IMG/VR virus record: IMGVR_UViG_3300005985_000001 | Coordinates: 19,742-83,741 of that record | DNA length: 64,000 bases | Source: a virus | Lineage: Duplodnaviria > Caudoviricetes | Reading direction: 5' to 3' (one strand) | Part shown: positions 773 through 63,591 of the stretch, in pieces | Layout of the letters: every line of letters starts with the position of its first letter | How positions within the stretch are numbered: position 1 is the first letter of the stretch | The notes under the pieces: model-generated | The model's input: the letters and a program-made list of their open reading frames with translations, nothing else | What the model was told of the DNA's origin: nothing | The model's database searches: none | Position numbers and translations under genes: made by a program

Positions 773-832
773 TTGATATTCTCCTTCATGAACCATTGTG
801 GTGAATGGATTATTACTGGATGTTACAGAGGA

Positions 833-1087
833 CTAAAGCACTCTCACAGTATCTACTGGTTGCCATGTCGTCAGGAAAAGCACCTGCTCATCGGCTTCAC
901 CCTCTGCGAGTTCGTCACAATCACTGGACATCAGGTGATAAGGGCGTACATCGAACTTGATGAAAAACTCTGCTACGCCCTCATCCACATGAAAATCCAG
1001 AATTTCTCCTCGTGCTCCCTGTGGCACAAGGGTGTACTTGTCCTTGAGAATCGCAGTTCTTCCGATTAGTTCTTCATAGTTAAGCAT
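833..1087 (-). CDS. hypothetical protein
   Basis: 84-aa ORF with AAAGGG RBS. Confidence 0.7.
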   Translation of the reverse strand: MLNYEELIGRTAILKDKYTLVPQGARGEILDFHVDEGVAEFFIKFDVRPYHLMSSDCDELAEGEADEQVLFLTTWQPVDTVRVL

Positions 1088-1152
1088 AGTTTTTCCCTTT
1101 CATGGTTTGATGATTAATATTACCTTTTTAATCCACTGGATGTTACGAAAGC

Positions 1153-1374
1153 TTAGTTCCAGTCCAGTGGCCAGTCCCTGATTTTCTCACTGGGTTCGAA
1201 CTCACACTCAATCCCGAATCGAGCATACCATTCACGCACCTTTGCTTTGAGATGATCCAATGTCGATGCCTCGAAGTTATTCTCATTGTCAAATGTAAAG
1301 TAAAGCTCGTCTGTGCCGGTATGCGGCATGAATGTGTGCTGAACTACGAATATGAGCTTTGCTATTTTTGCCAT
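1153..1374 (-). CDS. hypothetical protein
   Basis: GGAGG RBS precedes internal ATG (MAKIAK). Confidence 0.65.
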   Translation of the reverse strand: MAKIAKLIFVVQHTFMPHTGTDELYFTFDNENNFEASTLDHLKAKVREWYARFGIECEFEPSEKIRDWPLDWN

Positions 1375-1385
1375 GTATCCTCCAG

Positions 1386-1598
1386 TCAAGGTTTTATCAC
1401 TAATATAACATCGTGTTGTTCTAAACACGTTAGTGCCTCAATCTGATCGCGCCAGGTCGAGCACCAGCGCAGAATGCCCAGCAGATTGCCCGGATACGGG
1501 TCTGCCAGCGGGATTAAGACAATTTGCAGCACCCACCAAAGCGCCAGAATTAGGATGATCAACCCAATGGTCAATCGAAGACTTGGAGCCGCCATCAT
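1386..1598 (-). CDS. small membrane protein
   Basis: Hydrophobic N-terminal helix; ATGA overlap with the upstream stop. Confidence 0.5.
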   Translation of the reverse strand: MMAAPSLRLTIGLIILILALWWVLQIVLIPLADPYPGNLLGILRWCSTWRDQIEALTCLEQHDVILVIKP

Positions 1599-1885
1599 TC
1601 GCCCTGAAGGTATTTCCAGTATTCAGACCATTTGGCTTCGTCATCGAGCAACTCGATCCAGTGATGGACCTCGCTGGATTCCGTGTGGAAATTGGCATCG
1701 CTCAGAGCTTCCGCGAAGACTTCCATGATGCGTAATCCATCCCACTCTGCCCATGAGGAAATGGCGATACCGAGTACCAGATTTTCGTTCTGTCGCAGAC
1801 GATCTGGGGTTTGGTATTTCTCCACAATCGTGGTGGGTAGATGCTGATTAATCAGAGCTTGAATCAAAGCAGCTTTGTCAGACAT
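1595..1885 (-). CDS. hypothetical protein
   Basis: AAGGAGAA RBS before MSDKAA. Confidence 0.7.
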   Translation of the reverse strand: MSDKAALIQALINQHLPTTIVEKYQTPDRLRQNENLVLGIAISSWAEWDGLRIMEVFAEALSDANFHTESSEVHHWIELLDDEAKWSEYWKYLQGE

Positions 1886-1904
1886 TGAGAAATTCTCCTT
1901 CAGG

Positions 1905-2162
1905 TTAGTTTGTGGTGGTTTGAGATTGCGAATTAATGTGAGGTGGCGTTTCCCGTTCAAATTCGGACACCCAGCCTAGAGATGCTTTGACCGCATCTTC
2001 GCCCTGCTCATAGAACATCTTGAGGCAGTCCAGGGCACATAGAGCAACGGTTGGGTCTTCAGCAAATTCATCACAGTGCCACATCACAATCTCACGACCT
2101 TCCTTGTCGTAAATGTAGATACCGCCTTCTTCACTGCCGTAGATTCGAACCTGTTCGTGCAT
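1905..2162 (-). CDS. hypothetical protein
   Basis: 85-aa ORF, coupled to the upstream stop. Confidence 0.7.
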   Translation of the reverse strand: MHEQVRIYGSEEGGIYIYDKEGREIVMWHCDEFAEDPTVALCALDCLKMFYEQGEDAVKASLGWVSEFERETPPHINSQSQTTTN

Positions 2163-3284: not shown

Positions 3285-3469
3285 TAATATTCTCCTTCTT
3301 CTAAAACAGCGACTCGTCGTTCCAGATCCTTGATCCGCTGATCGAGTGGCACGACAATGCCATCGATGATGTCGCTGATTTCGGCATAGGTGTCTGAATC
3401 CACGCCGAGTCCAGCTTCTCGCATCAGCATGATGATGTAGTGTTGCAGGAGATCCGTTGGCGTAAGCAT
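3284..3469 (-). CDS. small coiled-coil protein
   Basis: 61-aa ORF ending LDQRIKDLERRVAVLEE; GAGG RBS. Confidence 0.65.
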   Translation of the reverse strand: MLTPTDLLQHYIIMLMREAGLGVDSDTYAEISDIIDGIVVPLDQRIKDLERRVAVLEEGEY

Positions 3470-3472
3470 AAC

Positions 3473-4573
3473 TTAACCTCTTTTCTGGCGAATAACCGGC
3501 ATAATCAGGGCAAGTCCACGAGAAGCGACCGGACGCATGACAATCGCTTCGTTCCACTGGTTGCCTTTAATGCGAATAACATCCTCGGTAAAGCTGTTCA
3601 GCACATCCTGCATATATTTCAGGTTGACATCGACGGTGAGACTTTCGCCAGTGAAGTCACTTTCCATCTGGTCTTCCAGATCCCCACGTTCTGGAGATAC
3701 GCCATAGATTTCCACGCCCTGCTCGGTACTGACGATCTTACTGGCAAGATTGTCATCTTTGGCGAAGATTGCTGCACGCTTCAGGGCTTTCAATAACTGC
3801 TTACGGTCCAGATCCAGTTCAGTGACATAACTCTTGGGAATAATTGCTTCGAAGTCTGGATACTTCCCTTCAAGCAACTGGCTCACCAGTACCATATCGC
3901 CAACCATGAAGTAAGCTTTTTCCTGATAGAGGTCAAAGTAAATGGTCTCGGCATCCCCTCGCGCAGCTTCTTTCCAGATTCGTGCGGGAATCACCGCTTC
4001 GTATTCAACCCCTTCAATGTTCTCAATGTGGACATGGCACTGAGCCAACCGATACCCATCTGAAGCTTCCAGCTTCATGATGTTGTTTTTGATGACGACA
4101 TGAACGCCAGTCAGGATTGGACGTGCCTGTTCTCTGGCAACCGCATAGATCACTTCACGGACCGCTTCCCGGAACGTTCCGCCATCGATTAAAATGGCAT
4201 ATTCGGTAATCGTTGGAATTGGCGGAAACTCTTTCGCGGGCTTCCCCTTGAAACGATTCTTTGAAGTGCCATTAAGAACAGTCGTGACTTCAACCCCTTC
4301 ATCCAGATCAAAATCGACCCGTTCTGGTGAGAGCAAATGCACGACTTCTTTGAACGTTTTGGCATGAAGGGTGGTTGAACCTTCACGATCTACTTTGGCT
4401 TTAATCCGGCTCATAATCGTGAGTTCTAGGTCTGTACCCACAAGCCAAACGCCATCACCTTCGGTTTGCACCAAGATGTTTGCCAGAATCGGCAAACGGG
4501 GCTTGGTCTCCACTGCCGCAGATGCCTGCTTGAGTGCTGTTTCCAACGTATCTTGCAAAACCGAGAATTTCAT
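3473..4573 (-). CDS. dnaN: DNA polymerase III beta sliding clamp
   Basis: 366 aa; LPILANIL, GTDLE, RPILTGV, ASDGYRLA, EGKYPDFEAIIP, VNLKYMQD motifs typical of DnaN. Confidence 0.95.
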   Translation of the reverse strand: MKFSVLQDTLETALKQASAAVETKPRLPILANILVQTEGDGVWLVGTDLELTIMSRIKAKVDREGSTTLHAKTFKEVVHLLSPERVDFDLDEGVEVTTVLNGTSKNRFKGKPAKEFPPIPTITEYAILIDGGTFREAVREVIYAVAREQARPILTGVHVVIKNNIMKLEASDGYRLAQCHVHIENIEGVEYEAVIPARIWKEAARGDAETIYFDLYQEKAYFMVGDMVLVSQLLEGKYPDFEAIIPKSYVTELDLDRKQLLKALKRAAIFAKDDNLASKIVSTEQGVEIYGVSPERGDLEDQMESDFTGESLTVDVNLKYMQDVLNSFTEDVIRIKGNQWNEAIVMRPVASRGLALIMPVIRQKRG

Positions 4574-5264: not shown

Positions 5265-5774
5265 TCAGCTTTTGTAAATGCGATAGAGGGTGTTGAAGTG
5301 CCTGACTTGCTCGGCAGTGGTGCCTCTGAACCTGCCAGAAAACACCCAGTTGCCAATCTGCTCCCAGTAGGAGGCGCTGCCGATCTGGTTGGGTGAGCCA
5401 TCGGATGTACCCGAAAGATGCGACAGTTCGTGGATCATGAGTCCGCCTTCTACAGCGTCATTCTCATAGACCCGTACAAAAGCGATGTCTGCCTTCACAG
5501 AAGCCTTCGGGTCTATACGCTGTTCTTCAGCGTTCCAGCGTTGGCGATGCAGCCCGAAGCTGACGTAGCCCAGTTCTGTGAGCCAGTTGCGGCTGTACCC
5601 GATGATGAGATCAAGCTGCCGCTCATCATTGAAGAACACCAGAATGTGCGGGCGTCCTTTGTCCGAGCAAACCGTTCGCAGATAAGCATCCATCTGCTGG
5701 AGCTTGGCGTCGGTTAAACCAGGGATGCCATGATCGGCACAGTGAATGACCGTGAGCGTATCGCGCGTGGTCAT
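5265..5774 (-). CDS. putative zinc metalloprotease (HExxH, aspzincin/M35-like)
   Basis: LMIHELSHLSGTSD = HExxH followed by GTxD. Confidence 0.55.
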   Translation of the reverse strand: MTTRDTLTVIHCADHGIPGLTDAKLQQMDAYLRTVCSDKGRPHILVFFNDERQLDLIIGYSRNWLTELGYVSFGLHRQRWNAEEQRIDPKASVKADIAFVRVYENDAVEGGLMIHELSHLSGTSDGSPNQIGSASYWEQIGNWVFSGRFRGTTAEQVRHFNTLYRIYKS

Positions 5775-5824
5775 CGAGCATTCTCCTTCACTTGTTTCGC
5801 TGGTGGTGTCAGCGAGAAAACGAA

Positions 5825-10357: not shown

Positions 10358-11386
10358 TTATTTCCTTCCCAGTTTCTTCGCCTGCTTGACGACCTCTTCC
10401 ACTGCTTTGTCCAGATTCCAATCCCGTTCAACCACAAGGTCAGCATCCTTCGCATCGGTGTTGTTGCCGATACTGAGCACCAGATCCGCGTTCAGGTTCT
10501 GCCGTGCCCAGTTCACAGCATTACCGCCATCCATTGCACTGAAGACACAGCCGTATTCTGCAAAACGTGGATTCATGCCTTCTACGAGACAAAAGCCCTC
10601 ATGTGCCCGGTGATCCGCAGATTCCGCGCAGATCTTGGCATAGCGATATAGGTCCCGATGAAACAATGCCCCGTACAAAGACATGGGCATGGTTCGAAAT
10701 GGATCGGCGATGATGTGCGCACGAGTAGCTTCGGTGTAACCACTGCCGGGGACAGGCTGGTTGCCTTCGACCAATGCCGCGTAAACCTGCATTCCTGCTG
10801 CCTCACATGCCCATTGAACGCCAAGCGTAATGCGTACAATCTTGGGAATGAAGTTCGCATCTGCCCACATCTCTCCCATCCCCGCACTGGCAACAATTGC
10901 AATCACAGGGGTTTTTGCAGGTGCCGAGAGGGTTTTACGAAACGGACGAATACGGTTGGGATCATAGGTTCCGGCAGCCGCCGCTTCGACCACTTCACTG
11001 AGCTTGCGTCGGTCCAGCTTGCCGTGTGGCAGGTCGCGGATCGTGACCATCGTAGCGACTTTCTCAAAGGCACTCACCAATCGACGGGCTGCACGAGAGG
11101 CTTCCTGACGAATATCTTCGGGCAAATGAAAGTTTTCAACGGCTCGAATCGCATCTGCGCGATTATGAATCTGCTGAGGAATGTATTTGTTTCCTTCGCA
11201 GGAAAACCAATCATCCTTTCTCCGCTTGTGGTATTTGGGATCTTCTCTTGGATAAACAGCTTCATCGCGCATATTCACTTTGAAAGACAATGCGAGTCCC
11301 TTTTTGCCAGCATAGGACTCGATTTCAAACAATGGTTTATGAACGGTATCTTGGGGCTGTGTAATCAGTTCTGGTAATGCATTCAT
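10358..11386 (-). CDS. vWA-like (CobT-type) partner of MoxR ATPase
   Basis: GKLDRRKL...PFRK then VIAIVASAGM (degenerate MIDAS position); coupled downstream of the AAA gene. Confidence 0.65.
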   Translation of the reverse strand: MNALPELITQPQDTVHKPLFEIESYAGKKGLALSFKVNMRDEAVYPREDPKYHKRRKDDWFSCEGNKYIPQQIHNRADAIRAVENFHLPEDIRQEASRAARRLVSAFEKVATMVTIRDLPHGKLDRRKLSEVVEAAAAGTYDPNRIRPFRKTLSAPAKTPVIAIVASAGMGEMWADANFIPKIVRITLGVQWACEAAGMQVYAALVEGNQPVPGSGYTEATRAHIIADPFRTMPMSLYGALFHRDLYRYAKICAESADHRAHEGFCLVEGMNPRFAEYGCVFSAMDGGNAVNWARQNLNADLVLSIGNNTDAKDADLVVERDWNLDKAVEEVVKQAKKLGRK

Positions 11387-12501
11387 CGGAGAAGTCCCTG
11401 ATCTTCGACTTCGACGCGACTGAAAAATGCGCGATTCGCAGCATCTGCAAGTGAGAAGTTTTTCACGGTCATCAGATTCGCCATCCGTGCCAGTGTACGC
11501 GGCGAAACATTCAGGCGCAGCGCATTCTGGTCAATCTTCTCGCGCATCTTGATCGCCCAGGCCTCCAGGGTTTTGGCAACTTTTCTGGGATAACCTTTCG
11601 ACTCCAGGATCAAAGCTTCGTTTTCATAGCCGGTCTGGATATAGGCGAAGCGATCCAGTTGAGCCGCATCCAATGCGTTGCGCCCCACGTAGTGCCGATT
11701 TGCCCCTGAGCCATAGGTGTTCATCGTGACGATGATCTGGCAGGGTCCCTGCGGGAAGATACGATCATGCTCCGGTGCGCCAGGCGTAGTGACATAGCGG
11801 GTTTGTCCATTGATGCCAGGGTCCTGAAACACGGATTGCAGGCACATCACCGCACGAGGATTGGCTGCATCGTATTCATTGATGACGACATCGCATCCTT
11901 CACGGAAGGCACGAGTAATCGCACCATGGATCCAGACATTGCCCTGTTCCGGGTGATAGCTCATGCCCCCAACTAACTCAAATGGCTCGATGAACTCGGT
12001 AATGTCAATCACATAGAAAGAGCGGTCTAGTGAATTGAACGCTTCGTATGAAACGGTCGATTTGCCGTTTCCGGTGGGGCCCACAATCGCAATCGCTGGA
12101 TAAACGTCAGGATGCTGGAGATAGAAGATCAGTTCATCGAACCACGAAGGCGGTACAAAGCCGATGGGTGTAGGTTTTGGCTCGGCATAGAGCATGGGAT
12201 GGTTGCGGCTGTGACTTCTACGCCAGCGGACTCGCCAGTGTTCTGCTTCAATGGAAGGTGGCAGGACTGGCTCTGGAACAGGCGCAGGTGCAACTTCACC
12301 CAATGGTTTTACATATTGACAGTAGTAGCGCAGGCGATCTGGGAGTTCCTTGCCCCGATACACATTTGCCCAGAGATTCGGGTCAAAAGTCGCGCCTGCA
12401 CTTTCCAGTTGATTTCTGACTTTAAACGTGCCGCCCAGCAGCACCCATTCCAGTGGGGCAAGCTGCAACGCAGCAATCGGTTGTGCCCGTTCACTCGGCA
12501 T
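11383..12501 (-). CDS. MoxR/CbbQ-like AAA+ ATPase
   Basis: GPTGNGKST Walker A, VVINEYD Walker B, TMNT sensor, LDAAQLDRF, SPR. Confidence 0.9.
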   Translation of the reverse strand: MPSERAQPIAALQLAPLEWVLLGGTFKVRNQLESAGATFDPNLWANVYRGKELPDRLRYYCQYVKPLGEVAPAPVPEPVLPPSIEAEHWRVRWRRSHSRNHPMLYAEPKPTPIGFVPPSWFDELIFYLQHPDVYPAIAIVGPTGNGKSTVSYEAFNSLDRSFYVIDITEFIEPFELVGGMSYHPEQGNVWIHGAITRAFREGCDVVINEYDAANPRAVMCLQSVFQDPGINGQTRYVTTPGAPEHDRIFPQGPCQIIVTMNTYGSGANRHYVGRNALDAAQLDRFAYIQTGYENEALILESKGYPRKVAKTLEAWAIKMREKIDQNALRLNVSPRTLARMANLMTVKNFSLADAANRAFFSRVEVEDQGLLR

Positions 12502-12537
12502 TCAGATTCTCCTTCTCCGTTGTGGTGACGGATACAG

Positions 12538-13579: not shown

Positions 13580-13783
13580 TTACTCCACCACAAGCATCTC
13601 ACGGAGCCGGACTTTACTCGTTACTGCGCGACGACTGTTGTGGCACCATTGAATATTCTTGGTGAGTGGATCGCGGCGGTAATGCATTTCGTAGATCTGC
13701 TGTCCATTTTCTTCGACCACATGGGTTTGATTCCCGCACTCCGGGCATTCCGTCTCATAGTAGTTAACTTTACGGTAAGGCAT
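13580..13783 (-). CDS. small zinc-ribbon protein
   Basis: CPECG plus distal WCH; GAAGGAGAA RBS. Confidence 0.65.
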   Translation of the reverse strand: MPYRKVNYYETECPECGNQTHVVEENGQQIYEMHYRRDPLTKNIQWCHNSRRAVTSKVRLREMLVVE

Positions 13784-13815
13784 CAGGGTTTCTCCTTCTC
13801 TGGGCGTGGTGTGCC

Positions 13816-14193
13816 CTACGAACGAACAGCTATAGCATCCAGCACAGTCTCCAGCATCTCGGCAAACGCTTCGGCATAGGCTTCCGCTTCTTCTGCCCAG
13901 AGATACAAGTAAGGCAGAACCAGACCTGCAACATCACCTTCAAACCAGATCAGTTCACGACCTACCGTGACATGCACACGCGGACAGTATCCATGCAGGT
14001 TCATACTTCGAAGGGTTTGAGTCGCCTGGTTTAAGCCAGCAAGAATAGCTTGTATATCAGCAATCGATTCCTCGCAGATCACAAAATGCGAATTGTCGAA
14101 CCGTGAGTAAGGTATGGGTTCAGAGCCGACCAATCGCTCGATATGTAGTTTGACGCCGATCCAAGGAACTACTTCAACACGAGTGTTGAGCAT
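13816..14193 (-). CDS. hypothetical protein
   Basis: GAAGGAGAA RBS before MLNTRVEV. Confidence 0.7.
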   Translation of the reverse strand: MLNTRVEVVPWIGVKLHIERLVGSEPIPYSRFDNSHFVICEESIADIQAILAGLNQATQTLRSMNLHGYCPRVHVTVGRELIWFEGDVAGLVLPYLYLWAEEAEAYAEAFAEMLETVLDAIAVRS

Positions 14194-14236
14194 GAGGTTT
14201 CTCCTTCGTTTATGCTCGGTGGTGACGAGTTTTGAA

Positions 14237-14872
14237 CTAAGCTTGTTTCTCAAACTCGGCAAGGATCATGTTTTCTAGGCGAGTATTGAACTCATCTAAC
14301 TCCGCATCCTGTGCAGCAGCCCACGCAGCAGCCCGTGCAGCATCCTGTGCAGCAGCCCACGCAGCAGCCCGTGCAGTAGCCCACGCAGTAGCCCACGCAG
14401 CAGCCCACGCAGCATCCCACGCAGTAGCCCAGTCTTCATCAGTCAGTTCGCCATTAATCCATTGCTGCTTTAGATCAAGCAGTTCATAATGAAGCCGATT
14501 TGCAGTTTGAACTTTTGGATTTGTGCTAGACGGCGAAAACAAATCAAGAGCTTCACGAGCAACATCGACTGAGAATTGATGCAAAATTCTTTCTACATCG
14601 AGCATCCAGAGCGTTTTGCGGTATCGTGCAACCAGCTTATCGCTGCCTTCAACAACATCACCCCAACATTCGACACGGCAAACGACAAGCGCATTGTTGC
14701 TGGCATAACTCAATGCATCAATCACTCGTCGGCTAGCGTGAAGCCCATATGCGCAAAGTTCAAGCTCGCCTTCTACAGAGAGTGTTTCTCCAACCTGGAC
14801 AATGCGATTATCGCCATGTTTCAGTTTGCGATCCGAACCAATGAAATGCCAAGCCAGAATTGAATCAGACAT
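14237..14872 (-). CDS. phage protein with AAWAAA repeats
   Basis: LELCAYGLHAS N-terminal domain plus C-terminal Ala/Trp tetrapeptide repeats, an architecture recalled from many phages. Confidence 0.8.
   Translation of the reverse strand: MSDSILAWHFIGSDRKLKHGDNRIVQVGETLSVEGELELCAYGLHASRRVIDALSYASNNALVVCRVECWGDVVEGSDKLVARYRKTLWMLDVERILHQFSVDVAREALDLFSPSSTNPKVQTANRLHYELLDLKQQWINGELTDEDWATAWDAAWAAAWATAWATARAAAWAAAQDAARAAAWAAAQDAELDEFNTRLENMILAEFEKQA
14324..14430. repeat. about 9 tandem 12-nt units (GCAGCAGCCCAC-like) encoding AAWA repeats
   Basis: Visible directly, including a duplicated 36-nt block. Confidence 0.9.
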
Positions 14873-14916
14873 TTGAAGCTTCTCCTTCTAACCTTGTGGT
14901 GTAGGTGTTTATACTG

Positions 14917-14929
14917 ATTATACTACGAA
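14917..14929 (-). promoter_or_regulatory. sigma70-like -10 element TTCGTAGTATAAT (copy 1)
   Basis: Identical 13-mer at 20549-20561; AT-rich intergenic gap. Confidence 0.7.
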
Positions 14930-17753: not shown

Positions 17754-18185
17754 TCAGCTAATATCGCCTGTTGGGTTGATCTCATCATCTTCTGTGAGAT
17801 CAATAACTATTACTTGTGCATCTGGCTTCATCCGCTGTAGTTCCTCAATCGGATCAATTACTTCGTGATCCTCAAAGTGAATCGGACGCACTTCATGCCA
17901 TTCGCCATACTGCATAGCCAATGCTTGCAGGCGAGTTTCCCATTTTGACCAGTCCTTAACACCGCGAAGATCTTCTAGGCTGATTTCGTCCAAGAACGGA
18001 TGTGCCTCAAGAAGATATGGCTTACATTCCTGACTTACACGCGGCAGGGCATGGGTATAGAGGTCGTCACTTGTCATGAAGTTCAGGATGTCATAGACGC
18101 AATCAATCGGATATTCAGTCCCAGGAACAGGGCAAAGAAATCCAGTGGTAATACTGAGTAATGCATTTAAATGGAACTGGCGCAT
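17754..18185 (-). CDS. conserved phage protein
   Basis: FHLNALLSITTG...VYDILNFMT.DDLYTH.LPR pattern; strong RBS. Confidence 0.75.
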   Translation of the reverse strand: MRQFHLNALLSITTGFLCPVPGTEYPIDCVYDILNFMTSDDLYTHALPRVSQECKPYLLEAHPFLDEISLEDLRGVKDWSKWETRLQALAMQYGEWHEVRPIHFEDHEVIDPIEELQRMKPDAQVIVIDLTEDDEINPTGDIS

Positions 18186-18296
18186 TGGGCCTCTCCTTCT
18201 CTCCTGTGTGGTGCAGGATGTCTATTACTTGTTCGAGAACTGCAAGACTCTGGAATACAAATTGCTATCGTTTCTCGGATTTTACGGAACGTTCCG

Positions 18297-18449
18297 TCAT
18301 GAACCTCCTAAAAGTGCCTGCACCATGAGAATGACTAAGCCAATGAGCATAACGCCAAGCATGGACCAACGAATAGTGGCGGCGAAGAACCCTTCATACT
18401 CAATGTCTTCGAGATACTTGTCGACGATACGATTAATCAGGCGCTGCAT
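18297..18449 (-). CDS. 50-aa membrane protein (absent from track)
   Basis: MQRLINRIV...MLGVMLIGLVILMVQALL; GAAGGAGAA RBS. Confidence 0.6.
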   Translation of the reverse strand: MQRLINRIVDKYLEDIEYEGFFAATIRWSMLGVMLIGLVILMVQALLGGS

Positions 18450-18493
18450 CAGGTTTTTCTCCTTCATTGAATAGGCATGTGGTGGATGTCAGG

Positions 18494-18936: not shown

Positions 18937-19926
18937 CTACTCGGAACGTTCCGGGCGTAGTTTGGTAAACACCAGTACCTGTTTATGTTCCAGGTAGCTG
19001 CTTTTCCACTCTTGGTCAGTCAAAATAGTTTCGACCAAGAGCCATTGGGCATGAGGGCAGAATCCGGCTTGATACAGCCCATTAGGACCATAGAACTCTG
19101 CGACTTGAGGCATGGGATAGTAGAAAATCTGATTGACCTGATCGTTGATTTCCATTGTTTCTTTTACCTTTCCCAGCGCCAGTAAATGACGTTTTTGCCT
19201 TGATGGTCTTCGTAGAAACCCATCTTGAACATAATCTTGCGCAGCCAGCGACGACGATTGGTTGAGATCACAAACATCTTAGGCATCGTACAATCGCGGT
19301 AGACAATCACGCGATTTTCGCCGAATGTCCCTTCGTAAATCATGATCACATCATGCATTCTACTACTCCTTGTTTATCCAGATCAAGACGAACGGGGGAT
19401 TAGTTCTCTGTGTTAAAGAACCTGCTCAAGCGTTGAACCAAGTCATACAAATGCTCATCCCGATACCGATACGGAATCTTCAAACTCTTGCCAAGTTCGT
19501 TTTCCGTGAAATGGCTGTTGCTGTGATGCCCCCAGCATCTCCCATCGGAATAGTAGTATCCGATCTCTACGCCATCCAGATAGATCGGATACCGTTTGTC
19601 CATGCCCACTGCTTTTGTGGGCGTGCCATGTGTGATTTCCATAGATTTATCCTCCAAATTAGAGAACGGATGATTAGTCTCTCTTCCTTCTCCCTCCCCG
19701 CCTACCGGTCCATCAACGCGGTTTCAATCTGGGCATAGGCACGAGAAGCAGCCTGATACAGCGGATGATCTTCCGGGTAAAGCGTCTGCACGTTACGCAG
19801 CACTTCAATGAAGGCATGGGTGGCGGAAATCACCACCTGGAGGGCATCCAGACGGGTACTGAGATCCATCTGTTCATCGTAGAGCAGGGCATACAGATTG
19901 AGGATATTCTCGGTGATGGTGAACAT
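18937..19926 (-). other. four consecutive small hypothetical CDSs (18937-19155, 19164-19358, 19400-19657, 19702-19926)
   Basis: Head-to-tail ORFs, most with purine-rich RBS. Confidence 0.65.
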
Positions 19927-19957
19927 GGGGGTATTTCTCCTTCTGCCTGAGTGGTGG

Positions 19958-20179
19958 TCAGGGTGTTTGAAATGCGAGTTCTATGAGTTTCTTGATCGAG
20001 CGATGATGCTTTTTGCCGTTCTGTGTGAGTACCACCGTATCATCAACCGAGAGATACACAGCTTTCTGGATCCTGCGAACTCTCCCTTTATTCGATATTT
20101 CATAGTCCGGGAACTCCGAGATTGACTTCCAGAGCTCTTCAACAATGGGTTGTTTCTTGGGTCTTGGCCCTAAAAGCAT
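19958..20179 (-). CDS. NUMOD4-containing protein lacking a recognisable HNH motif
   Basis: EELWKSISEFPDYEISNKGRVRR. Confidence 0.75.
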   Translation of the reverse strand: MLLGPRPKKQPIVEELWKSISEFPDYEISNKGRVRRIQKAVYLSVDDTVVLTQNGKKHHRSIKKLIELAFQTP

Positions 20180-20294: not shown

Positions 20295-20504
20295 TTAGGC
20301 ATTGAGTTTTGAGTTGATCCAGACTTCTGCGCCAATGACATAGAAAGGCGCATGGGTATCCAGTACCCATCCATTAACCTGAAGCATGTCGTGGATCTGG
20401 GCAAGGCGCTTCTCAGATGCTTCGTAGTAGCGAGGTTTTTCGTTAGTCCGCTGAAAAGAGACGGTGAGGAATCCCCATGACCAAAAGATAATGCGTTCGA
20501 GCAT
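20295..20504 (-). CDS. hypothetical protein
   Basis: 69-aa ORF, GAAGGAGAA RBS. Confidence 0.7.
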   Translation of the reverse strand: MLERIIFWSWGFLTVSFQRTNEKPRYYEASEKRLAQIHDMLQVNGWVLDTHAPFYVIGAEVWINSKLNA

Positions 20505-20548
20505 CGTGTATTCTCCTTCAAGGTCTGTGTGGTGCAGACGATGTACCT

Positions 20549-20561
20549 ATTATACTACGAA
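20549..20561 (-). promoter_or_regulatory. sigma70-like -10 element TTCGTAGTATAAT (copy 2)
   Basis: Identical to 14917-14929. Confidence 0.7.
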
Positions 20562-22037: not shown

Positions 22038-23199
22038 TTAGAGTGTGGTAAACGCGAGTAGATCAAGAGGCTGTGAAACAACCATGCGAATACGCCGAAG
22101 CGTCCGACCGAACCGTACTTCTTCTGCCAACTCCTTCCAGCACAAGTTGGATATAAAGTCCTCTTCCCAGGCCCCACAGGGAAGATTCGCCTGATTGACA
22201 GCACGGACTTCTGCCATACGCTTCATAAACTGGATCTGTGCTTCAGTGAACATGATGTATGTAGCGACCTTTCTATAGGGGATGCTCTATGGACATGTAT
22301 ATAGGGCGATGCTTATCCATCGCCCATTGTTGGGTATATGCTTACCTACTGACGGTTGCGGAAGTTCTTGAACACTTCACTGTCCTGAATACGCTCCAGG
22401 TGACGCTGAGCAGCCATCTCATGCCCATAGACCTTTGTCACCTTCCGGTTGAGGATGTTCTCAGTGCGACCCGTGCGAGGGTGATACTCATAGGTTGCCA
22501 GGAACACAGCATACCCACCATCAAACGACTGCACTTCGAACTTGCTCGTGCGTTGAATCCTGTTTGCGTTCATTGTTGATACTCTCCTTCATATAGCCTG
22601 CATGGTGCAGGCAGAACCCACTTAGCTAGACTTCTTTGCTGCAAGACGAACAATCGGGGTGATTTCAAGCGTGTCCGCATCGATGACAAACAACCGTTTC
22701 TCAGTAGCAGCATCTGCGACATAGTGCTTGGTGATGCCATTCACGGAGACCGAGCTAATCACGAACTTCTGCTGAGCAGCCTTCAGCAGCACCATATCCT
22801 CAGTGGTGAGCAGGGGCTGTGTGGCTGCCTGACCGACAAACTCTTCGTCCGAATGACGCTTGCCCACGATGACGTTGATGACCACGAATACGATGAGGAT
22901 GGTTGCCATGCCTGCGATAAACCATTCCATGTGTATGCTCCTTAGTCCTGATACATCCAGCCAAATTGCATTTCATGCTCGACTGCCTTGAGGCGCACCA
23001 GATCGCCCTGACGCAGCACCAGAATTTCCATCTGCGTGCAGGCGTCATCCATCGAGCAGCCTGTACGAACCATCAAGGCAATCGCCTCATCGACCCGAAC
23101 ATCCTGCGTATCAATGAATGGCTTGACCGACTTTGCCGCTTTGTTGCCCCGTACCATGCTCAACAGACCCATTTCAACTGCTCCTTGTGTAGGACCCAC
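22038..23199 (-). other. four small hypothetical CDSs (22038-22253, 22346-22573, 22622-22930 with N-terminal TM helix, 22942-23199)
   Basis: Head-to-tail ORFs with RBS. Confidence 0.65.
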
Positions 23200-24387: not shown

Positions 24388-24443
24388 TGAGCCAAATGTT
24401 CTAAACAGGGACACCACCCCTGTCGAAGGAGAATACATCCAAT

Positions 24444-42300: not shown

Positions 42301-44634
42301 CAGTCCCAGACTCGCGCAGGTGCATCTCGTGAAACGGCATTGAGCAACTACAGCTACTGGGCACGTTATAATCCGAATTATATGCCAGGCGGCGACCTTG
42401 CCGGTCAGATGACCCGCATTGCAATGGGCGGCGGGGATACAGGAACGGTTGCCCAGTCCTTCGCTGGATCGCGCGGTATCAGCCCGTTTAGTCAGTCTAT
42501 GATGGATAGCGTAAATCGCTATGCCATGAACATGCTCACTGATCAACAGAATATGGGCTTGTTCACGGAAGCATCCAGCTTTGTGGGACAGCAGATTGGT
42601 GGTGTCAATCAGGCACTGCGTATGGCAGGACTGGGTAGCAGCCAGGCTGATCTCCTTCAGATGGTGCAATTCCTGCAAAATGGTGGGTCACTTGACCAGT
42701 TCAATGCAGGACTTCAGAGCCGAGGTACTGCTGCCTCGCTTCGCATGAGTACACCGGGTTTCTTCGATGTGGGTGGCTATCGACTGAAAGATAACTGGGA
42801 AGTATTCTCTGGTCAGGGTGATTTTGTCACGACTGAACGCTTGCAGCAGCAGGCAATGCAAGCCGGGCAGATGTATAACCAGTTCCTCGCCAATGGCGCT
42901 TCGCCGGGAGATGCCTTTGCCAATGCTTACCGCTACGGCACGGACTACGATGAAGCCAGCGCGAACCGTCAATTCCAAATGCTTCAGGGCAATCAGCGAG
43001 TCATTTCACTTGAAGGTGTCCGAACCCAGAATGCTGCATTGCAAACGATCAATCCGAACACGGGGATGGGCGCATACTACAACAACGTCAATGCCGAGAA
43101 TATCGCGGCGCTGAGAGCCAACAATCCCTTTGGCTTGTTCAACCTCACCGACGAAGAAGCACGCATGGGCGAGATGGGCTGGCAGAACCAGATCCTGCGC
43201 GCCAATCGCGGGCTGGAAGCTTACCAGTATGGGATGCGAGTGCGTCAGCGTGATCTGGGCTATGCGCTCACCACTGGCAATATGTTCCAGGCAGGGGGTC
43301 TGTTCGGTGCAGACGGAATGGCATTCAACCCCGGCGATGGCAGAGGCTTCTGGCAATTGGAAGATGCATCTCGTCGTCTGAATCGTGCGCAGCAGTCCTT
43401 CTCGTATGAGCAGGATACGGCACAACTGGGGATTCGTCAGCGTGAATTCGAGCTTTCTGGTTTGCAGTGGCAGACCAATTACGAATTGCAGCAGCGCCAG
43501 TTTGCATACAATACGCAGTATCAACGCGAAACACTGGGCATCTCGCGTGGACGCGAACTGGAACAGCAAAGCTGGCGACGAGAGGATCTTGCTTTTTCCA
43601 GATCACAACTCGATATTGGCTTTGCGTGGAATATGGAAGATGCAGATCGCAATATCCGCTATGCGCGTGGGCGTGAGAAGCGCGATCTGATGCGTCAGAA
43701 AGCCCGCGAAGTCATTCGCTACTCGATGGAATCGTCTCAACTGGATCGTCAGACCGAGCGCAATGAACAGCAAGTCGGCTGGTCGCAGCAGGACTTCGAG
43801 CGCCAGAAGCAGTATTTCGAACAGGGCGTTCAGTTCCAGAAAGAGGCGATGGAGAACCAGAAGAAGTTCTACGACCAGAACCGTGAACTGGATCGCCAGC
43901 GTCTTGACCTGGCAAAGCAGGCGCATGACCGTCAACTGGGCTGGATGCAGGAAGGCTGGCAGATCGAAGATCAGCGTATCCTGCTCGAACGCCAGAACTA
44001 CCAGTTGTCCTACAAGCAGCAGGTCGATATGGATACCCGGATTCGTGAGAACACGCTCACGGTGCAGCGATGGAGCGATGCGATTGATCAGGCAGGACGT
44101 GTCATGCAGGAACGGATTGCAGCGATCAATACTGCGGTGAGTACCGGGAACATCACTAGCCCACAAGCGCAACGGAACCTGAACAATTATTCCTATACAG
44201 GCTTGTCGCAGGATTCGGGTAGTGGCAGCAGTTCGAGCGGCACGGGATTGCCCGTGAATCCAGTCCTGAACCGCACCTATACAGCGAACGATGGTCGTCG
44301 CTTCACTTATACGGCACGCGGCTGGCTGCCAGCAGGCAGTGACTCTAGCACATCGCGCTACGGTCAGTCGGGTGGATTTGCTCAAGGTGGTTATACGGGT
44401 ACAGGCGATCCCAATGAAGTTGCAGGGGTGGTTCACAAGGAAGAGTACGTGGTGCCGCAGGGTGGCGCACTGGTGGTTCGTGGAGCCAGTGAAGAGCAGC
44501 TTAAGCGTCAGGATCGGATGATCGCGCTTCTGGAGAAGATCGCCGATAACCCGACGCTGTTCCAGGTCGTGATGGGAGATGGCAATAAGAGCAAAGCCAC
44601 TCCGATGTATCGTGAAGCGGCAGCACGGCTCTAG
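36367..44634 (+). CDS. giant tape measure protein fused to a two-barrel RNA polymerase core and a PD-(D/E)xK nuclease-like domain
   Basis: TMP position after G/GT; C-terminal FAQGGYTG...VAGVVHKEEYVV lambda-type TMP motif; N-terminal GKRG, RYP and DNDGD motifs; ADF...DIK...QVSNY. Confidence 0.85.
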   Translation: MRLRRNMAFNANLDVDNQDHYRHLMNRLDREGIKYGMNDVDLGFGRNLTAITINQRIRDKDVQSHLFYGPEGGLYVSNPNNTGGVRPILSTIRFNKDESISPSNPLMSPVDRVINMIQNPNWEDPKTKRVSQYGLSTLAQKQGADNVSWQRLEAQPGLDRLFRNGVQLSGEKYSYNDKIDQLNRATGSDYVNYARVGAAYRAKDYEAVIPTNNAGGMLISKLKEAKLFTGKVSDAVIGRNIYEPSPEPFYFEGQAGPNQSVVLRGAFDLFSEIPEGAAFTAGLGAANRISRTVTLPRGTTYDPDTGGLTLANGTALSAGTYFGGKPPGSYSDYTRLGGKREYNDIFGVSMGSYHSTLIENIVPELNDRGQFTGRATFDARAITKDVAIKSWIKAEGMDIHRSAMPFDEETDRHVDTWMRLPDLKKLPALALKALAADMNNTEAFGQWFGEQASARGMSADWIAQNFQNGQVSKEATPLVTEAAIQRLLSKATYNPQNPRRNVPLGSTEYEAFRNVTFIHQGQSYNVLGNVQARDDGTYLAETFHTPRIVTDYATNVRTEHVRDTMRIKPGTLSIMAQNNPELFDSLTSIAQATRKNNRAFAMTSAFRANSSSEQRQAVQDIFGIDKLDIAQVGRLREEYLSNNTDVSDSGMFRHILSGLAEQYGEQALELKTPQGSMILPNARTIRAGLRRNNDNPELINNWSKSAAGLITALGDDSISPDIIQNMANDTYARMEEHSGKRGVQQKATSIELGRLGGFARSTPGIPDNMAITSLATIQKRTGIENPDEIRRMAAQGDLVLSGWRYPSTHAKDFAASVRLGIYEDQPQWYKDRYLNPGRDVYTSPEIMRALRGDNDGDRFQAVLNRFRTQAAEFGKSLTALTPRQVVQRAANAFESERTKFIKTMAERSGMDLANTPLSAFSSFSYSQKQMREDFLTEEREAKSLIGINTNTFNRSMGMAARSGAEQLFGVDSPLTDRIAVAFSSIENITGASALDRAANKDTALEYLQQVGQDKGLYRTGARFWNRSTGKTLTGPESQFQEIFKQLSSIGSNLEGEPVLGISPDQEYRQKLAPAIATAMLTRDEMKRLADSGELDQRINQMADMLTQRRATGEDISTQLLPLTGAAKFAEWGEGNGSGLGSQSSIGQWITGQIANNYRLSQRKDKSGNKMVDANGKPVIMGEFPTDWGAQYENAGKIAQSIQEFNTNLGKRRGNNTLEQAVRSVAGGGERLKNFLGGMFPGLAQATQRFAVAPVDDPSLYNPGAYLTASQWTSGTGVDDELLRLVNLNTTSAERSGVIAELMKSGAFQEYRPYSGPANNADKVGTRMENVLTGKLAAPENQQILMANARRRMGNSRADFGMRDSAGNLVVGDIKTKSRTGLMSDLLGPSLRGDIMGQVSNYITGTRIDGGERQTGDYGVVVGGIRLSDNPNMPESEVAAGFEQAHDLAMQMYSNSQMPTSWANAGWTQERWESHRQASMQAMQDIYAASGMKVAARVVTGEEAEQFLNARQGDIYNLKSIRPEHRAADMAGRAQQIMALRGGGNISGSGVGSPPPPNMPGAPPAPPSGDDGYVPSSASGSGGSGGGGSVVNNNTVYRMSNPRITSKQIAEAEIALEHLGEAAKTFATGSKEAREEMLKHYDALKTVSSYLSDVERAQRSPDGFNTNNPNYLLLQQRLGSGRAGGSAFGTINNAVYDPALSNAAYEAQLANMRDTGEEPPQSRLQRMMRGGQDLAERIIKTQGLFHAKLAFNMFAGSAIGAADNWQDQQAAQGMMLAQAGQLTFNQLMGSQFGTMQRRNIALQEGGLAYGQQVYSAYAPLINFAAGPDTAKGPLGAMAGIGVPAFGVAAAATTLTGSPLFGAVAGGVTAGIGTLGYMSSNAVNYQAVGAFNQQRNAGMGLQAMFQNTAGAAGAFWNDLGRGLGLVSDEDYQRYLDAPQFNDLIQRYSRGEVGRQEAIAQAEAMRFNGGDLMAGGLEAWVQSQTRAGASRETALSNYSYWARYNPNYMPGGDLAGQMTRIAMGGGDTGTVAQSFAGSRGISPFSQSMMDSVNRYAMNMLTDQQNMGLFTEASSFVGQQIGGVNQALRMAGLGSSQADLLQMVQFLQNGGSLDQFNAGLQSRGTAASLRMSTPGFFDVGGYRLKDNWEVFSGQGDFVTTERLQQQAMQAGQMYNQFLANGASPGDAFANAYRYGTDYDEASANRQFQMLQGNQRVISLEGVRTQNAALQTINPNTGMGAYYNNVNAENIAALRANNPFGLFNLTDEEARMGEMGWQNQILRANRGLEAYQYGMRVRQRDLGYALTTGNMFQAGGLFGADGMAFNPGDGRGFWQLEDASRRLNRAQQSFSYEQDTAQLGIRQREFELSGLQWQTNYELQQRQFAYNTQYQRETLGISRGRELEQQSWRREDLAFSRSQLDIGFAWNMEDADRNIRYARGREKRDLMRQKAREVIRYSMESSQLDRQTERNEQQVGWSQQDFERQKQYFEQGVQFQKEAMENQKKFYDQNRELDRQRLDLAKQAHDRQLGWMQEGWQIEDQRILLERQNYQLSYKQQVDMDTRIRENTLTVQRWSDAIDQAGRVMQERIAAINTAVSTGNITSPQAQRNLNNYSYTGLSQDSGSGSSSSGTGLPVNPVLNRTYTANDGRRFTYTARGWLPAGSDSSTSRYGQSGGFAQGGYTGTGDPNEVAGVVHKEEYVVPQGGALVVRGASEEQLKRQDRMIALLEKIADNPTLFQVVMGDGNKSKATPMYREAAARL

Positions 44635-56971: not shown

Positions 56972-56976
56972 ATTCC

Positions 56977-60624: not shown

Positions 60625-61358
60625 GTGTGATTGCCGCGACCCTCCTCACCGACCGTAAGCCTGCCTTCCCGGTCTCCCTACAATACCTGACGCAAGAACC
60701 GCTGATCGAGCGTATCTACGTCAATATTGAGACCAGGTATCCGAGCAGTTATAGCTACGTCACTAAATTCCTTGAAGAATCAGGCAAGCCCTTCTACGTC
60801 GATTACTGGAACATCGAGAGCAACTGGCGGCAGCGCCCGGAATACGACCAGGACCCGAAACGCTTTGCCCCGATTGCAATGGGGCGGAATATGACGTTGG
60901 ACTGGGCGATCTCGATGACCTGGTTTGATCCCAATACCTCGCACCTGCTCTTCGTAGACAGTGATGTACGTCCGCATCCGGGTGGGCTGGAAAAGCTGCT
61001 GGCACTTCAGAAACCCATTACAGGCGGCGTGGTGCCAGGGCGTGGCGCACACAGTCATGTGAACTATGTCTTCGGCGTCCACGATCAGATCGGCGACGTG
61101 ATACGCTGTATGCATGGCACCAGTGGCTACCTGCTGCTGGAGCGTTCTTCATTTGAAGTGCAGCGGTTCCGCTCCGGTCCCTGCATCTACAATCGTGGAG
61201 ATTTCCTCTGTGATGATCCTGCCTATGCGACCGACGCCTTTCATATGAAGCTCACCGACTACTGGTACATCCACAAGGGCGCAACGGCGGATCACGTCGA
61301 TGACCCGGATCGTCCACTGACTCTGGAAACTGCCATCAATGACTATCACAGGCCCTGA
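60621..61358 (+). CDS. GT-A glycosyltransferase
   Basis: IAMGRN...HLLFVDSDV (DxD). Confidence 0.75.
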   Translation: MSVIAATLLTDRKPAFPVSLQYLTQEPLIERIYVNIETRYPSSYSYVTKFLEESGKPFYVDYWNIESNWRQRPEYDQDPKRFAPIAMGRNMTLDWAISMTWFDPNTSHLLFVDSDVRPHPGGLEKLLALQKPITGGVVPGRGAHSHVNYVFGVHDQIGDVIRCMHGTSGYLLLERSSFEVQRFRSGPCIYNRGDFLCDDPAYATDAFHMKLTDYWYIHKGATADHVDDPDRPLTLETAINDYHRP

Positions 61359-61363
61359 TTCGT

Positions 61364-62056
61364 ATGATACTGACCAGGCGTAAGCTGCATCCGATGACCG
61401 AAGTGATTGCAGTCATGACCTACAACCAGCCGGAGATGGTGTGGGCACTCATGCAGGAACTCAGTCCTTATCTCCTGGTGATTGATAATGGTTCGACTGT
61501 ACCCATCCCCAACACACGTATTCGAGTTCCAGAGAACCGCTATTTTGCAGGGGGCTGGAATTACGCCATGCAGCAGATTGACGCCGACTGGGTCGCCATG
61601 CTGAACGACGACATCACCGGTATCACGGTCGGGATGATCAGCGACTTGATTGATACTGCGATAGCACATGACTATGCTGCGATCTCGCCCGCCTTTAACT
61701 CTCCGCATCCGCATATGCAGCCGCAAGGCAAAGGACTCAGACGTGTTCACTCGATTGATTGGGTAGCGACTATTGTTCGCAAAAAAGCCTGGGATGATGT
61801 GGGTGGCTTCAATGAAGCCTTTCCTGGCTATGGATCGGATCTTGAGTGGGCATATCGTGCCAAGCAAAAAGGCTATCGCCTGGCTGTCGATGATCGCTAC
61901 TGTATTCACCACATCGGCGGCGCAGCAGCAATTGCTGGTGGTACGCAGCACATTCAGGGCAATGTCACATCGATGAACGAAGCGTTCAATCGGCTCTATT
62001 CTGTCCCGGACTGGATGGCATTTACCCAGCAGTATCTAATGAAGGATTTCTCATGA
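61364..62056 (+). CDS. GT2 glycosyltransferase
   Basis: LLVIDNGS, FAGGWN, MLNDD, VGGFNEAFPGYGSD..W..RA. Confidence 0.88.
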   Translation: MILTRRKLHPMTEVIAVMTYNQPEMVWALMQELSPYLLVIDNGSTVPIPNTRIRVPENRYFAGGWNYAMQQIDADWVAMLNDDITGITVGMISDLIDTAIAHDYAAISPAFNSPHPHMQPQGKGLRRVHSIDWVATIVRKKAWDDVGGFNEAFPGYGSDLEWAYRAKQKGYRLAVDDRYCIHHIGGAAAIAGGTQHIQGNVTSMNEAFNRLYSVPDWMAFTQQYLMKDFS

Positions 62057-62505
62057 CCGATCTTCCAGTCAGTTTAGACATTGGCGCAATTCCGTATCAG
62101 GTCGAAGTCGTAGATGGATTGCATGTACTCAATGAGGATGGCAGTAAAGATCAACTGAACGGTTATCATCTGGAGCACATTGCGCGGATTCAACTCCGAG
62201 AGGATTTGTCCCCTGCAATCAAGCGCGTTGTGTTTATGCATGAGCTTATCCATGCCCTGCTCTGTCAGCGTGGGCACAAATACCCTCATGAAGAGAACAT
62301 GATCGAAGGCTTGTCTTATGGTCTGGTCGATCTGTTTCAGCGTAACCCCGATTTACTCCCCTATCTCATGAATATCCCCGAAGGACAATCCCCGAATGAA
62401 CTGGCAACAACTCCCGGACCCGATCAAGCAGGAAGCTCTGACCCAGTACCGCAAGAACCGGTCCCTGAACAATCCTGCGCTTGCAGACATTGCCACAGAC
62501 CATAA
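62053..62505 (+). CDS. HExxH metallopeptidase-like phage protein
   Basis: VFMHELIHALL...EE. Confidence 0.75.
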   Translation: MTDLPVSLDIGAIPYQVEVVDGLHVLNEDGSKDQLNGYHLEHIARIQLREDLSPAIKRVVFMHELIHALLCQRGHKYPHEENMIEGLSYGLVDLFQRNPDLLPYLMNIPEGQSPNELATTPGPDQAGSSDPVPQEPVPEQSCACRHCHRP

Positions 62506-63397
62506 CATCAATATAGGTACATTGCTTCGACGCTTACAGGAGATGGATCGCTCAGAACGGGCGAACTATCTGGCACTCACTGAAGGGATTCAGCTTCCTA
62601 CGCAATCTGAGCGTCAATGGAATGATTGTCTGGTTATTGAAGATGAGAACGCCATTGTCATCAGCGACATTGAAAGCCCGGATGCGGATCTAGTTTGGCT
62701 AGAAACCGTGATTCTGATGGGTATCAAACACAATATTCGTCGCCTGATTATTCTTGGAGATACCAGCGCAGGCGATCAGCCCGGACTAGCGACGCATCTC
62801 CTCACCTGGTTTGAGTCCGGGCAGGTGGATTTCAAGAGTTCGATTGGGATGCTGCGACGGATGATCCAGATCTTTCTTATCTTTTTTGATGAGATTGACA
62901 TCATCTCCGGTAACCACGACCAGCGTATTGCCAAAGCCACAGGTGGACAGATCGATCTCGGAACGTTCCTTGAGGACTTCGGAACCCGAGTGCGCTTCAG
63001 TCGCTATCGCCGGATGTATATGCGGACTTCACGCGGGCTGATTGCCATGTACCATCAAGCGAACTTCTCGCAGAATGGTGTGGCACTCGCGCAGAAAATG
63101 TACGATGCCGAACCCGGCTTGAATCGCCAAAAGCCCTACGCGGTAATTATTACCCATATCCATCACTGGGGCTGCGGCAAAAGCAAGGATAATCTCGCGG
63201 AAGTGTATTCACTGGGCTGCTCACGCGATCCGAACCTGACCCAGTACATCAACGAAACTCCCAGTACCTTTGCCAAGTGGTCGCAGAGTCTCATTATCAT
63301 AGAAGATGGCTATTTGAGAAATCTGGAGCGGGACAGCACCAACTGGAAAAAGGAACTCGGCGAATATGCGGAGAAAGCGAGAATCTGTGCTGCATGA
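62396..63397 (+). CDS. calcineurin-like metallophosphoesterase
   Basis: ISDIE, ILGD, SGNHD, YH, THIH motifs. Confidence 0.85.
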   Translation: MNWQQLPDPIKQEALTQYRKNRSLNNPALADIATDHNINIGTLLRRLQEMDRSERANYLALTEGIQLPTQSERQWNDCLVIEDENAIVISDIESPDADLVWLETVILMGIKHNIRRLIILGDTSAGDQPGLATHLLTWFESGQVDFKSSIGMLRRMIQIFLIFFDEIDIISGNHDQRIAKATGGQIDLGTFLEDFGTRVRFSRYRRMYMRTSRGLIAMYHQANFSQNGVALAQKMYDAEPGLNRQKPYAVIITHIHHWGCGKSKDNLAEVYSLGCSRDPNLTQYINETPSTFAKWSQSLIIIEDGYLRNLERDSTNWKKELGEYAEKARICAA

Positions 63398-63591
63398 TGG
63401 TAAGAGACGCGATGAGCACTTTCATGTAGAATACAAGTGCTGTTCCGTTTTGAGCGAAAAACCATCACAAATGTCCACTTTTTGCGGATTTCTCGCTCAG
63501 AATTAGAATACTTGTGCTATCATAATAGCACGTCGCGCCGATCAACTTCACCACAAAGTTCCGGCGCATGAAGGAGAATACCCTCAATAAA

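Follow-up and report, generated by a model that had tools for sequence, protein, structure and literature searches.

Phage A is the virus represented by an 83,741-bp record (IMG/VR IMGVR_UViG_3300005985_000001; Duplodnaviria; Caudoviricetes), and the window analyzed here is the last 64 kb of that record (64,000 nucleotides, positions 19,742–83,741). The genome carries 20 short hairpins that present a conserved CACCAC loop, and 19 of them are located 0–10 nt 5′ of a GAAGGAGA-type Shine-Dalgarno (SD) sequence. The CACCAC hairpin is a real, strongly supported, and uncatalogued cis-element. Selection acts on both its pairing and its loop sequence; it occurs in transcripts, is coupled to the SD, and is restricted to one clade. 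Its most likely identity is that of an mRNA hairpin operator joined to the ribosome-binding site (RBS) of about 20 translation units. Coordinates are window positions unless another sequence is named.

Genome organization

The left arm (~44 kb) is transcribed leftward and holds ~90 mostly small genes, including those for RecA, DnaB helicase, a DnaG-type primase, an AAA_24 ATPase, SSB, a beta clamp, and LexA-like winged helix-turn-helix (wHTH) proteins. Two of the encoded wHTH proteins are of the LexA type. Rightward from 24444 lie terminase, portal, capsid, and tail genes and a 2767-amino-acid (aa) tape-measure-like gene. Hairpins are concentrated in the left arm (17 copies, versus 3 in the right arm).

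Hairpin inventory

Twelve hairpins were described in an earlier note on the window, and all were recovered at their positions and on their strands. Their stems are all different and perfectly Watson-Crick paired (4–6 bp), their loops are nearly uniform (6–8 nt with CACCAC, or CACCAU at 22612), and 0–9 nt separate the stem from GAAGGAG. Across all phage A copies, stems are 4–7 bp, and 17 of the 20 loops are 7 nt long. The hexamer takes two registers, lying against either the 3′ side (NCACCAC) or the 5′ side (CACCACA) of the loop. The hairpins are commoner than the note had it. Seven further copies, all on the minus strand, occur in the 19.7 kb upstream of the window (genome positions 2057, 6614, 9726, 11690, 16308, 18035, and 19379), and one more is found at 27739–27755. 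The note's count of at least 12 genes stands for 11, which have a start codon 5–12 nt after GGAG; the copy at 63544 is an orphan, which lacks a start codon within usable distance and is followed by a terminator.

Ten of the window copies are on the minus strand. CCATT-caccac-AATGG (793–808) ends 5 nt before GAAGGAGAA and precedes the gene at 620–772. TCGCTG-acaccac-CAGCGA (5797–5815) is 7 nt before the SD of gene 5265–5774, has an upstream stop codon 11 nt off, and scores 24.7 bits in the covariance model described below. TCCGT-caccaca-ACGGA (12516–12532) directly adjoins the SD (0 nt) of an AAA_5 ATPase gene (11383–12501). The stem of GGGC-acaccac-GCCC (13802–13816), upstream of gene 13580–13783, is overlapped by the upstream stop codon TAG, and CTCG-tcaccac-CGAG (14215–14229) belongs to gene 13816–14193. 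ACCT-acaccaca-AGGT (14891–14906) serves a DUF7666 gene (14237–14872) and is 10 nt 3′ of a TTCGTAGTATAAT motif (14917–14929); GTCTG-caccaca-CAGAC (20523–20539), upstream of gene 20295–20504, is 9 nt 3′ of a second TTCGTAGTATAAT (20549–20561). TCCTG-caccaca-CAGGA (18202–18218) precedes gene 17754–18185. The 5′ arm of CCTGA-ccaccac-TCAGG (19946–19962), before gene 19702–19926, contains the upstream stop codon TGA. The loop variant CACCAU occurs in GCCTG-caccaug-CAGGC (22596–22612), before gene 22346–22573.

On the plus strand, ACAGGG-acaccac-CCCTGT (24405–24423) lies 17 nt after a TTGATT-18-TATAAT promoter and before the first gene of the structural arm (24444–24851). The single hairpin without an SD is GGCAT-tcaccac-ATGCC (27739–27755, plus strand), whose 3′ arm contains the ATG start codon of a small zinc-ribbon gene. 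The orphan copy is part of a unit at 63535–63625 (plus strand) that consists of an extended −10 promoter, an extended hairpin tipped by AACTT-caccaca-AAGTT (63544–63560), an SD, no open reading frame (ORF), and a strong terminator. The SD-like stretch is unpaired in the predicted fold (z = −5.5). The unit is a candidate ~90-nt RNA or decoy bearing the signal of the leaders.

Degenerate or stemless CACCAC copies are also found 5′ of SDs near 18464, 1900, and 63673. GACAT-ccaccac-ATGCC (18473–18491, minus strand) has one A·C mismatch, precedes the SD of gene 18297–18449, and scores 15.6 bits. A CACCAC without a stem (1900–1935, minus strand) lies ~11 nt before the GAAGGAGAA of gene 1595–1885.

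Statistics and covariation

A chance origin is excluded. CACCA-loop hairpins with GGAG within 30 nt numbered 20 in the genome and 0.72 ± 0.85 (maximum 4) in 100 dinucleotide shuffles. Because the hairpin list had been selected for stems, the linear motif was compared in unrelated contigs as a non-circular control. A flanking stem of at least 4 bp was found in 1.6% of 126 CACCAC-N4–18-GAAGGAGAA matches in unrelated IMG/VR contigs, versus 15 of 18 (83%) in phage A. In a structure-registered alignment, each inner position of the stem shows every one of the four Watson-Crick pair types, a count that is circular in that the copies were chosen for stems, and 88% of cells are paired versus 42% when shuffled, which is circular for the same stem-selected copies. 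At internal stem positions, one A·C occurs in phage A and one U·G in a relative, phage B.

No hairpin matched in Rfam 15 at E ≤ 1; the gathering score was reached by a tRNA-Trp alone. The hairpins are not unusually stable (energy z from −1.7 to +0.7), and the predicted hairpin probability is 0.15 or less in four copies. Weak and energetically unexceptional stems fit a scaffold that presents a loop, not a passive roadblock.

Coupling to ribosome-binding sites and transcripts

The hairpin is found solely with the full AAGGAG core. Of left-arm genes with a full AAGGAG SD and at least 25 nt of upstream spacer, 17 of 23 have a hairpin; genes with weaker SDs have none (0 of 20). The unit is thus a hairpin, 0–10 nt, (AT)GAAGGAGAA(TAC), and a start codon. 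The gap between hairpin and SD is only 0–3 nt in five window copies. As the earlier note had it, several copies begin at or over an upstream stop codon: in about half of all copies a stop codon lies 0–15 nt 5′ of the stem or inside it, at tight intercistronic junctions. The remaining copies are ~2–15 nt from predicted transcript 5′ ends.

The observation that four copies stand just 3′ of −10 boxes was also confirmed and extends to seven copies, 9–22 nt 3′ of −10 elements. Four phage A hairpins follow a strongly conserved motif, TTCGTAGTA(T/G)AAT-N-AGTA, by 9–15 nt, and another three lie 17–22 nt beyond promoters of the sigma-70 type or the extended −10 type. The same promoter-then-hairpin arrangement is present in phage B. 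Hairpins at these distances are therefore inside the transcripts. The conserved motif belongs to a 19-nt AT-rich sequence, TTCGTAGTA(T/G)AAT-N-AGTA(Y)A, which has four copies in phage A, all on the minus strand (the two window positions given above for TTCGTAGTATAAT, and L123 9742–9754 and 19394–19406), and no clear −35 element. Phage B has similar copies, and the motif is a candidate phage-specific promoter.

A separate 10-bp palindrome, GGAACGTTCC, has 31 copies in the 83.7 kb of phage A (e.g., 18943–18952, 63599–63608, and L123 11686–11695) and is present in three relatives, phages B, C, and D. It is often immediately 5′ of an SD. In six cases in phages A and B it adjoins the 5′ arm of a CACCAC hairpin or shares bases with it, so that formation of one structure would compete with that of the other.

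Relatives

No relative of phage A was found in INPHARED or IMG/VR, and the JGI contigs gave distant relatives only, all without the motif. A single distant TerL relative on an Anaerolineae metagenome-assembled genome contig is a clue to the host that is too weak for naming it. Relatives reached through TerL and DnaB homologues are ~85-kb contigs in public assemblies, of which partial sequences were compared. Phage B (TerL 65% identical, 52 kb examined) has about 14 copies with CACCAC loops. Phage C (TerL 60%, 54 kb examined) has about 5 copies with CGCCAC or UGCCAC loops and never CACCAC. No copies were found in the partial sequences of phages D and G (TerL 54% and 53%), E (DnaB 56%), and F (TerL 36%). 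Loop identity is thus genome-specific: CACCA occurs in 19 loops in A and 12 in B, only CGCCA or UGCCA is found in C, and none of these loops occurs in D, E, F, or G.

A scan of the genome and its relatives had been proposed as a check. A covariance model built on 24 copies gave scores of at least 17 bits in phages A, B, and C only, and the top score in ~150 kb of other phages was 16.6 bits.

Orthologous genes keep the hairpin with unrelated stems. The DnaB genes have GTTCCG/CGGAAC in A, TCCCA/TGGGA in B, and ACCCT/AGGGT in C. The AAA_24 genes have CCGGG, CCTGTA, and ACGAAT, and the genes for a 211-aa protein have ACCTG, GCGA, and GGTG, in the same order. A 300-aa gene has kept both the hairpin and an upstream promoter-like motif in A and B. 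Pairing and loop are therefore selected, the stems are free to change, and the loop shifts in concert within a genome. Judged from sequence, concerted loop change with free stems is the pattern that a co-evolving reader would produce.

Two phage B copies have unusual surroundings. At about L120 925–1166 (minus strand), a hairpin and SD are followed by an open hydrophobic frame of 75 codons without ATG, GTG, or TTG at the right distance, and its start codon may be ATC. The second copy (L120 516–534) is followed by an SD-like GGAGAUAGC that is able to pair with GCUAUCUCC 15 nt downstream, ahead of the real SD. Relatives B and C also encode large serine recombinases (L124 18803–20695; L125 20210–21826), and given these they are likely temperate. 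The phage C DnaB has a LAGLIDADG intein (L125 10001–12571), and intein domains are present in several TerL homologues.

A candidate reader of the loop

The start-codon hairpin at 27739–27755 belongs to a 70-aa zinc-ribbon ORF (W-x-CPxC...CxC; 27751–27963, plus strand). Among the regions examined, this ORF is present only in the three hairpin-bearing phages, in which it is 58–62% identical. The syntenic TerL-portal interval of phages D and G lacks it, and the full-length family is confined to the A/B/C clade. The phage B counterpart of the start-codon hairpin stays paired by virtue of a sense-strand U·G wobble. Phyletic profiling with the partial relative genomes turned up five small ORFs specific to the clade, and none of them has an RNA-binding annotation. 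Clade-specific ORFs other than the zinc-ribbon ORF lie at genome positions 3420–3671 and 11697–12029 and at window positions 22346–22573. The zinc-ribbon protein is the sole candidate loop reader found, and it is a weak one. A tRNA-Trp gene (anticodon CCA; 27967–28041, plus strand) lies just 3′ of the zinc-ribbon ORF, between the terminase and portal genes.

Comparison with known systems

Protein-read operators at or beside the RBS, either hairpins or single-stranded, include the T4 RegA targets, the MS2 coat-protein hairpin, and the Escherichia coli thrS operator. In the thrS operator, a 5-bp stem immediately 5′ of the SD bears a 7-nt, anticodon-like loop. These operators overlap the SD or AUG, repress, and have one or few targets; RegA has many targets and no defined hairpin. 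In contrast, the phage A hairpin is separate from the SD. The two hexamer registers argue against strict anticodon mimicry.

The closest described system is the start-associated sequence (SAS) and extended SAS (ESAS) of Cluster K mycobacteriophages, described in 2011 (PMC3203893) and of function still unverified in 2025 (PMC12699233). SAS has a 13-bp consensus, GGGATAGGAGCCC, 3–7 bp before the start codon, and ESAS consists of 17-bp inverted repeats that are conserved in sequence and do not covary; the authors saw little support for an RNA hairpin (PMC3203893). In both systems a conserved, strand-specific signal that includes AGGAG occurs ten to twenty times per genome, a few bases 5′ of start codons; most copies are in the non-structural half, and many precede unrelated genes. 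Both have an extra upstream inverted-repeat part in a subset of copies, whose consensus varies between subclusters. They differ in that the phage A arms have no consensus and covary fully around a fixed loop, whereas the ESAS arms are conserved. The SD context is also different, (AT)GAAGGAGAA(TAC) in phage A versus GGGATAGGAGCCC in SAS; the shared AGGAG core alone is common, and the phages are unrelated.

The nearest mechanistic precedent for a small zinc-binding protein that reads a hairpin loop upstream of a start codon is Com of phage Mu and its mom operator. Com has one target, recognizes the loop motif CC(N)2-3GAG, and melts an adjacent inhibitory stem that sequesters the start (PMC6483171). 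The phage A clade likewise combines a small protein of the zinc-ribbon type with hairpins of conserved loop that precede start codons, but there are ~20 targets, the loops are CACCAC, and no adjacent inhibitory structure is predicted. The zinc-ribbon protein had no match to the Com family, and a Com-like role for it is a conjecture by analogy.

Interpretation

The favored explanation, judged moderately probable, is that the element acts in mRNA and presents its loop to a trans factor that sets translation or mRNA stability. We infer the action in RNA, the factor reading the loop, and the output. The element would be a cis-acting RNA module of phage translation-initiation regions, in which a short hairpin presents a 7-nt loop with CACCAC in either register and is followed within 0–10 nt by an unusually uniform strong SD, (AU)GAAGGAGAA(UAC). 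About 20 translation units that initiate independently would have their first cistron tagged by the hairpin, some of them at primary transcript 5′ ends and others right behind an upstream stop codon. The loop would be read by a trans factor that is sequence-specific and co-evolves with it. This could be a phage protein (the zinc-ribbon candidate), the host ribosome, or another RNA, and it would set the translation efficiency and/or the lifetime of tagged messages. The earlier note had proposed a structure-plus-loop recognition element, either RNA or a single-stranded DNA hairpin promoter; stems that turn over around a held loop support the first part, and of its two alternatives the RNA reading fits better. 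Its boxB-like option, taken as an antitermination site, is improbable given ~20 SD-linked copies. Lambda boxB has a 5-bp stem, a GNRA-like pentaloop, an accompanying boxA, and one site per early operon, whereas the phage A hairpins have C-rich 7-nt loops and some lie within operons.

Several points weigh against the mRNA-operator reading. Predicted SD and AUG accessibility is unaffected by the hairpin, leaving no simple structural switch or insulator. In a Pfam search, the 88 early-arm ORFs had no RNA-binding domain, sigma factor, RNA polymerase, RNase, or other nuclease. The zinc-ribbon protein has a generic fold and no functional annotation, matches only generic zinc-ribbon relatives, and has a start-codon hairpin with a different loop (UGUUUCU) in phage C; phylogeny confounds its association with the hairpins. 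Wobbles at the first position beyond the stem do not favor the sense strand (8 A-C versus 1 G-U), and the A-C excess is probably a composition effect.

Several specific mechanisms were rejected. A Com-like structural switch as a general mechanism does not agree with a mean SD-to-AUG accessibility of 0.53 with the hairpin forced or its 5′ arm blocked, across 18 initiation regions. A thermodynamic roadblock is not compatible with the folding energies given above. Mimicry of an anticodon loop or of tRNA-Trp fails because the hexamer occurs in two registers of the 7-nt loop, which leaves no consistent anticodon position. Pairing of the loop with the SD, as in a pseudoknot, would require GGUG opposite CACC, and the SD is GGAGAA.

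A bolder version of the mRNA-operator reading is offered tentatively and is judged unlikely. It supposes a phage-private translation code, in which the zinc-ribbon protein or a phage-altered ribosome reads CACCAC and selectively loads ribosomes on about 20 messages, label and reader co-evolve, and the orphan RNA at the genome end is a decoy or buffer.

Other explanations place the function in RNA turnover or in contact with a second RNA. An RNA processing or stability determinant, either an endoribonuclease site that separates cistrons or a protective 5′ or 3′ structure, would alter translation only as a consequence. It fits the copies in tight intercistronic junctions, and those near predicted 5′ ends, where a hairpin can protect from 5′-dependent decay. 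The layout also resembles that of T7, in which RNase III sites are situated between genes. However, RNase III sites of the T7 type are duplexes of ~20 bp or more with an internal loop, and stems of 4–6 bp are too short for that enzyme and too weak against exonucleases, given the four copies with low predicted hairpin probability. A fixed loop is needless for a passive barrier, the early arm has no nuclease gene by Pfam, and promoter-proximal copies have no upstream cistron to separate; a processing role is considered unlikely. Pairing of the loop with a complementary GUGGUG RNA, as a second docking contact with the ribosome through host rRNA or as a kissing contact with a phage or host small RNA that would control the whole gene set, is rated quite unlikely. 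Because every loop variant (CACCAC, CACCAU, CGCCAC, and UGCCAC) is a transition that keeps wobble pairing to GUGGUG, an RNA partner is retained among the possible readers. The stemless CACCAC copies 5′ of SDs are expected if single-strandedness alone matters, and the orphan RNA at 63535–63625 could be a decoy for such a partner. An exact complement, GATTG-GUGGUGU-CAATC, occurs at 42594–42610 (plus strand) in the mRNA of the late 2767-aa gene and mirrors an ACACCAC hairpin, matching the covariance model at 23 bits on the opposite strand; in the late mRNA it may serve as an anti-loop. That complement, however, lies in coding sequence (Gly-Gly-Val) with a chance match estimated at 10–20%, neither strand yielded a GUGGUG-loop hairpin in non-coding DNA, and CACCAC is not avoided in sense-strand coding regions.

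The last two explanations act on DNA. On the pattern of N4, the hairpins could be promoters, or parts of promoters, on single-stranded or melted DNA for a phage RNA polymerase, which may be a domain fused to the 2767-aa protein at its N-terminus. Copy number and early-arm spacing are promoter-like, and the loops are G-rich on the template strand, as are those of the N4 hairpin promoters. The 2767-aa protein (36367–44634, plus strand) has a single DxDGD-type motif (LRGDNDGDRF, aa 853–857). The N4 virion RNA polymerase promoters similarly have variable stems and conserved loop or stem positions ahead of early genes, but they number three, with 3-nt loops, 5–7 bp template-strand stems, and a T7-like polymerase (PMC4496689). 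Phage A has 20 copies, tied to the SD, with loops mostly of 7 nt (6–8 in the window), its stems of down to 4 bp are weak and would make poor cruciforms, and seven copies lie just 3′ of −10 elements. An N4-like start point at SD gaps of 0–3 nt would fall inside the SD and destroy it. Copies before the terminase operon and right after stop codons inside operons, and the sense-strand U·G wobble in phage B, also do not suit promoters. Thermus phage P23-45 does have a tape-measure-fused, two-barrel virion RNA polymerase, but this enzyme uses a conserved AT-rich linear promoter and not hairpins (PMC10770324). The 19-nt AT-rich motif 5′ of four phage A hairpins would fit such a promoter better. Neither the 88 early ORFs nor the large virion proteins of phage A gave a match to an RNA polymerase family, T7-like included, and the N-terminal region of the 2767-aa protein had no sequence match to solved structures or phage records, so the polymerase is putative. 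The promoter explanation is held to be very improbable. Scarcely credible is a role at the DNA level, as mobile cassette boundaries, lagging-strand priming sites, or recombination sites. Many hairpin-preceded genes are specific to phage A, which means that the module frequently stands at the boundary of an accessory gene; strand orientation and a possible direction of replication are confounded, and phage A encodes its own DnaB and DnaG. Priming or recombination sites would not be expected to show such tight and constant coupling to the SD and start codon, so uneven a distribution between the arms, or conservation at core replication genes in three phages.

Significance

Genome-wide start-site signals of the SAS/ESAS type have been known since 2011 without a mechanism. 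The CACCAC hairpin is a cleaner case: covariation shows that the hairpin must form, and only the loop is conserved. Concerted loop change between sister phages predicts a specific, findable reader. If the reader is encoded by the phage, it would be a regulon-scale translational regulator and a potential portable part for orthogonal translation control. If it is the ribosome or another host RNA, the hairpin would represent a new kind of ribosome-docking contact.

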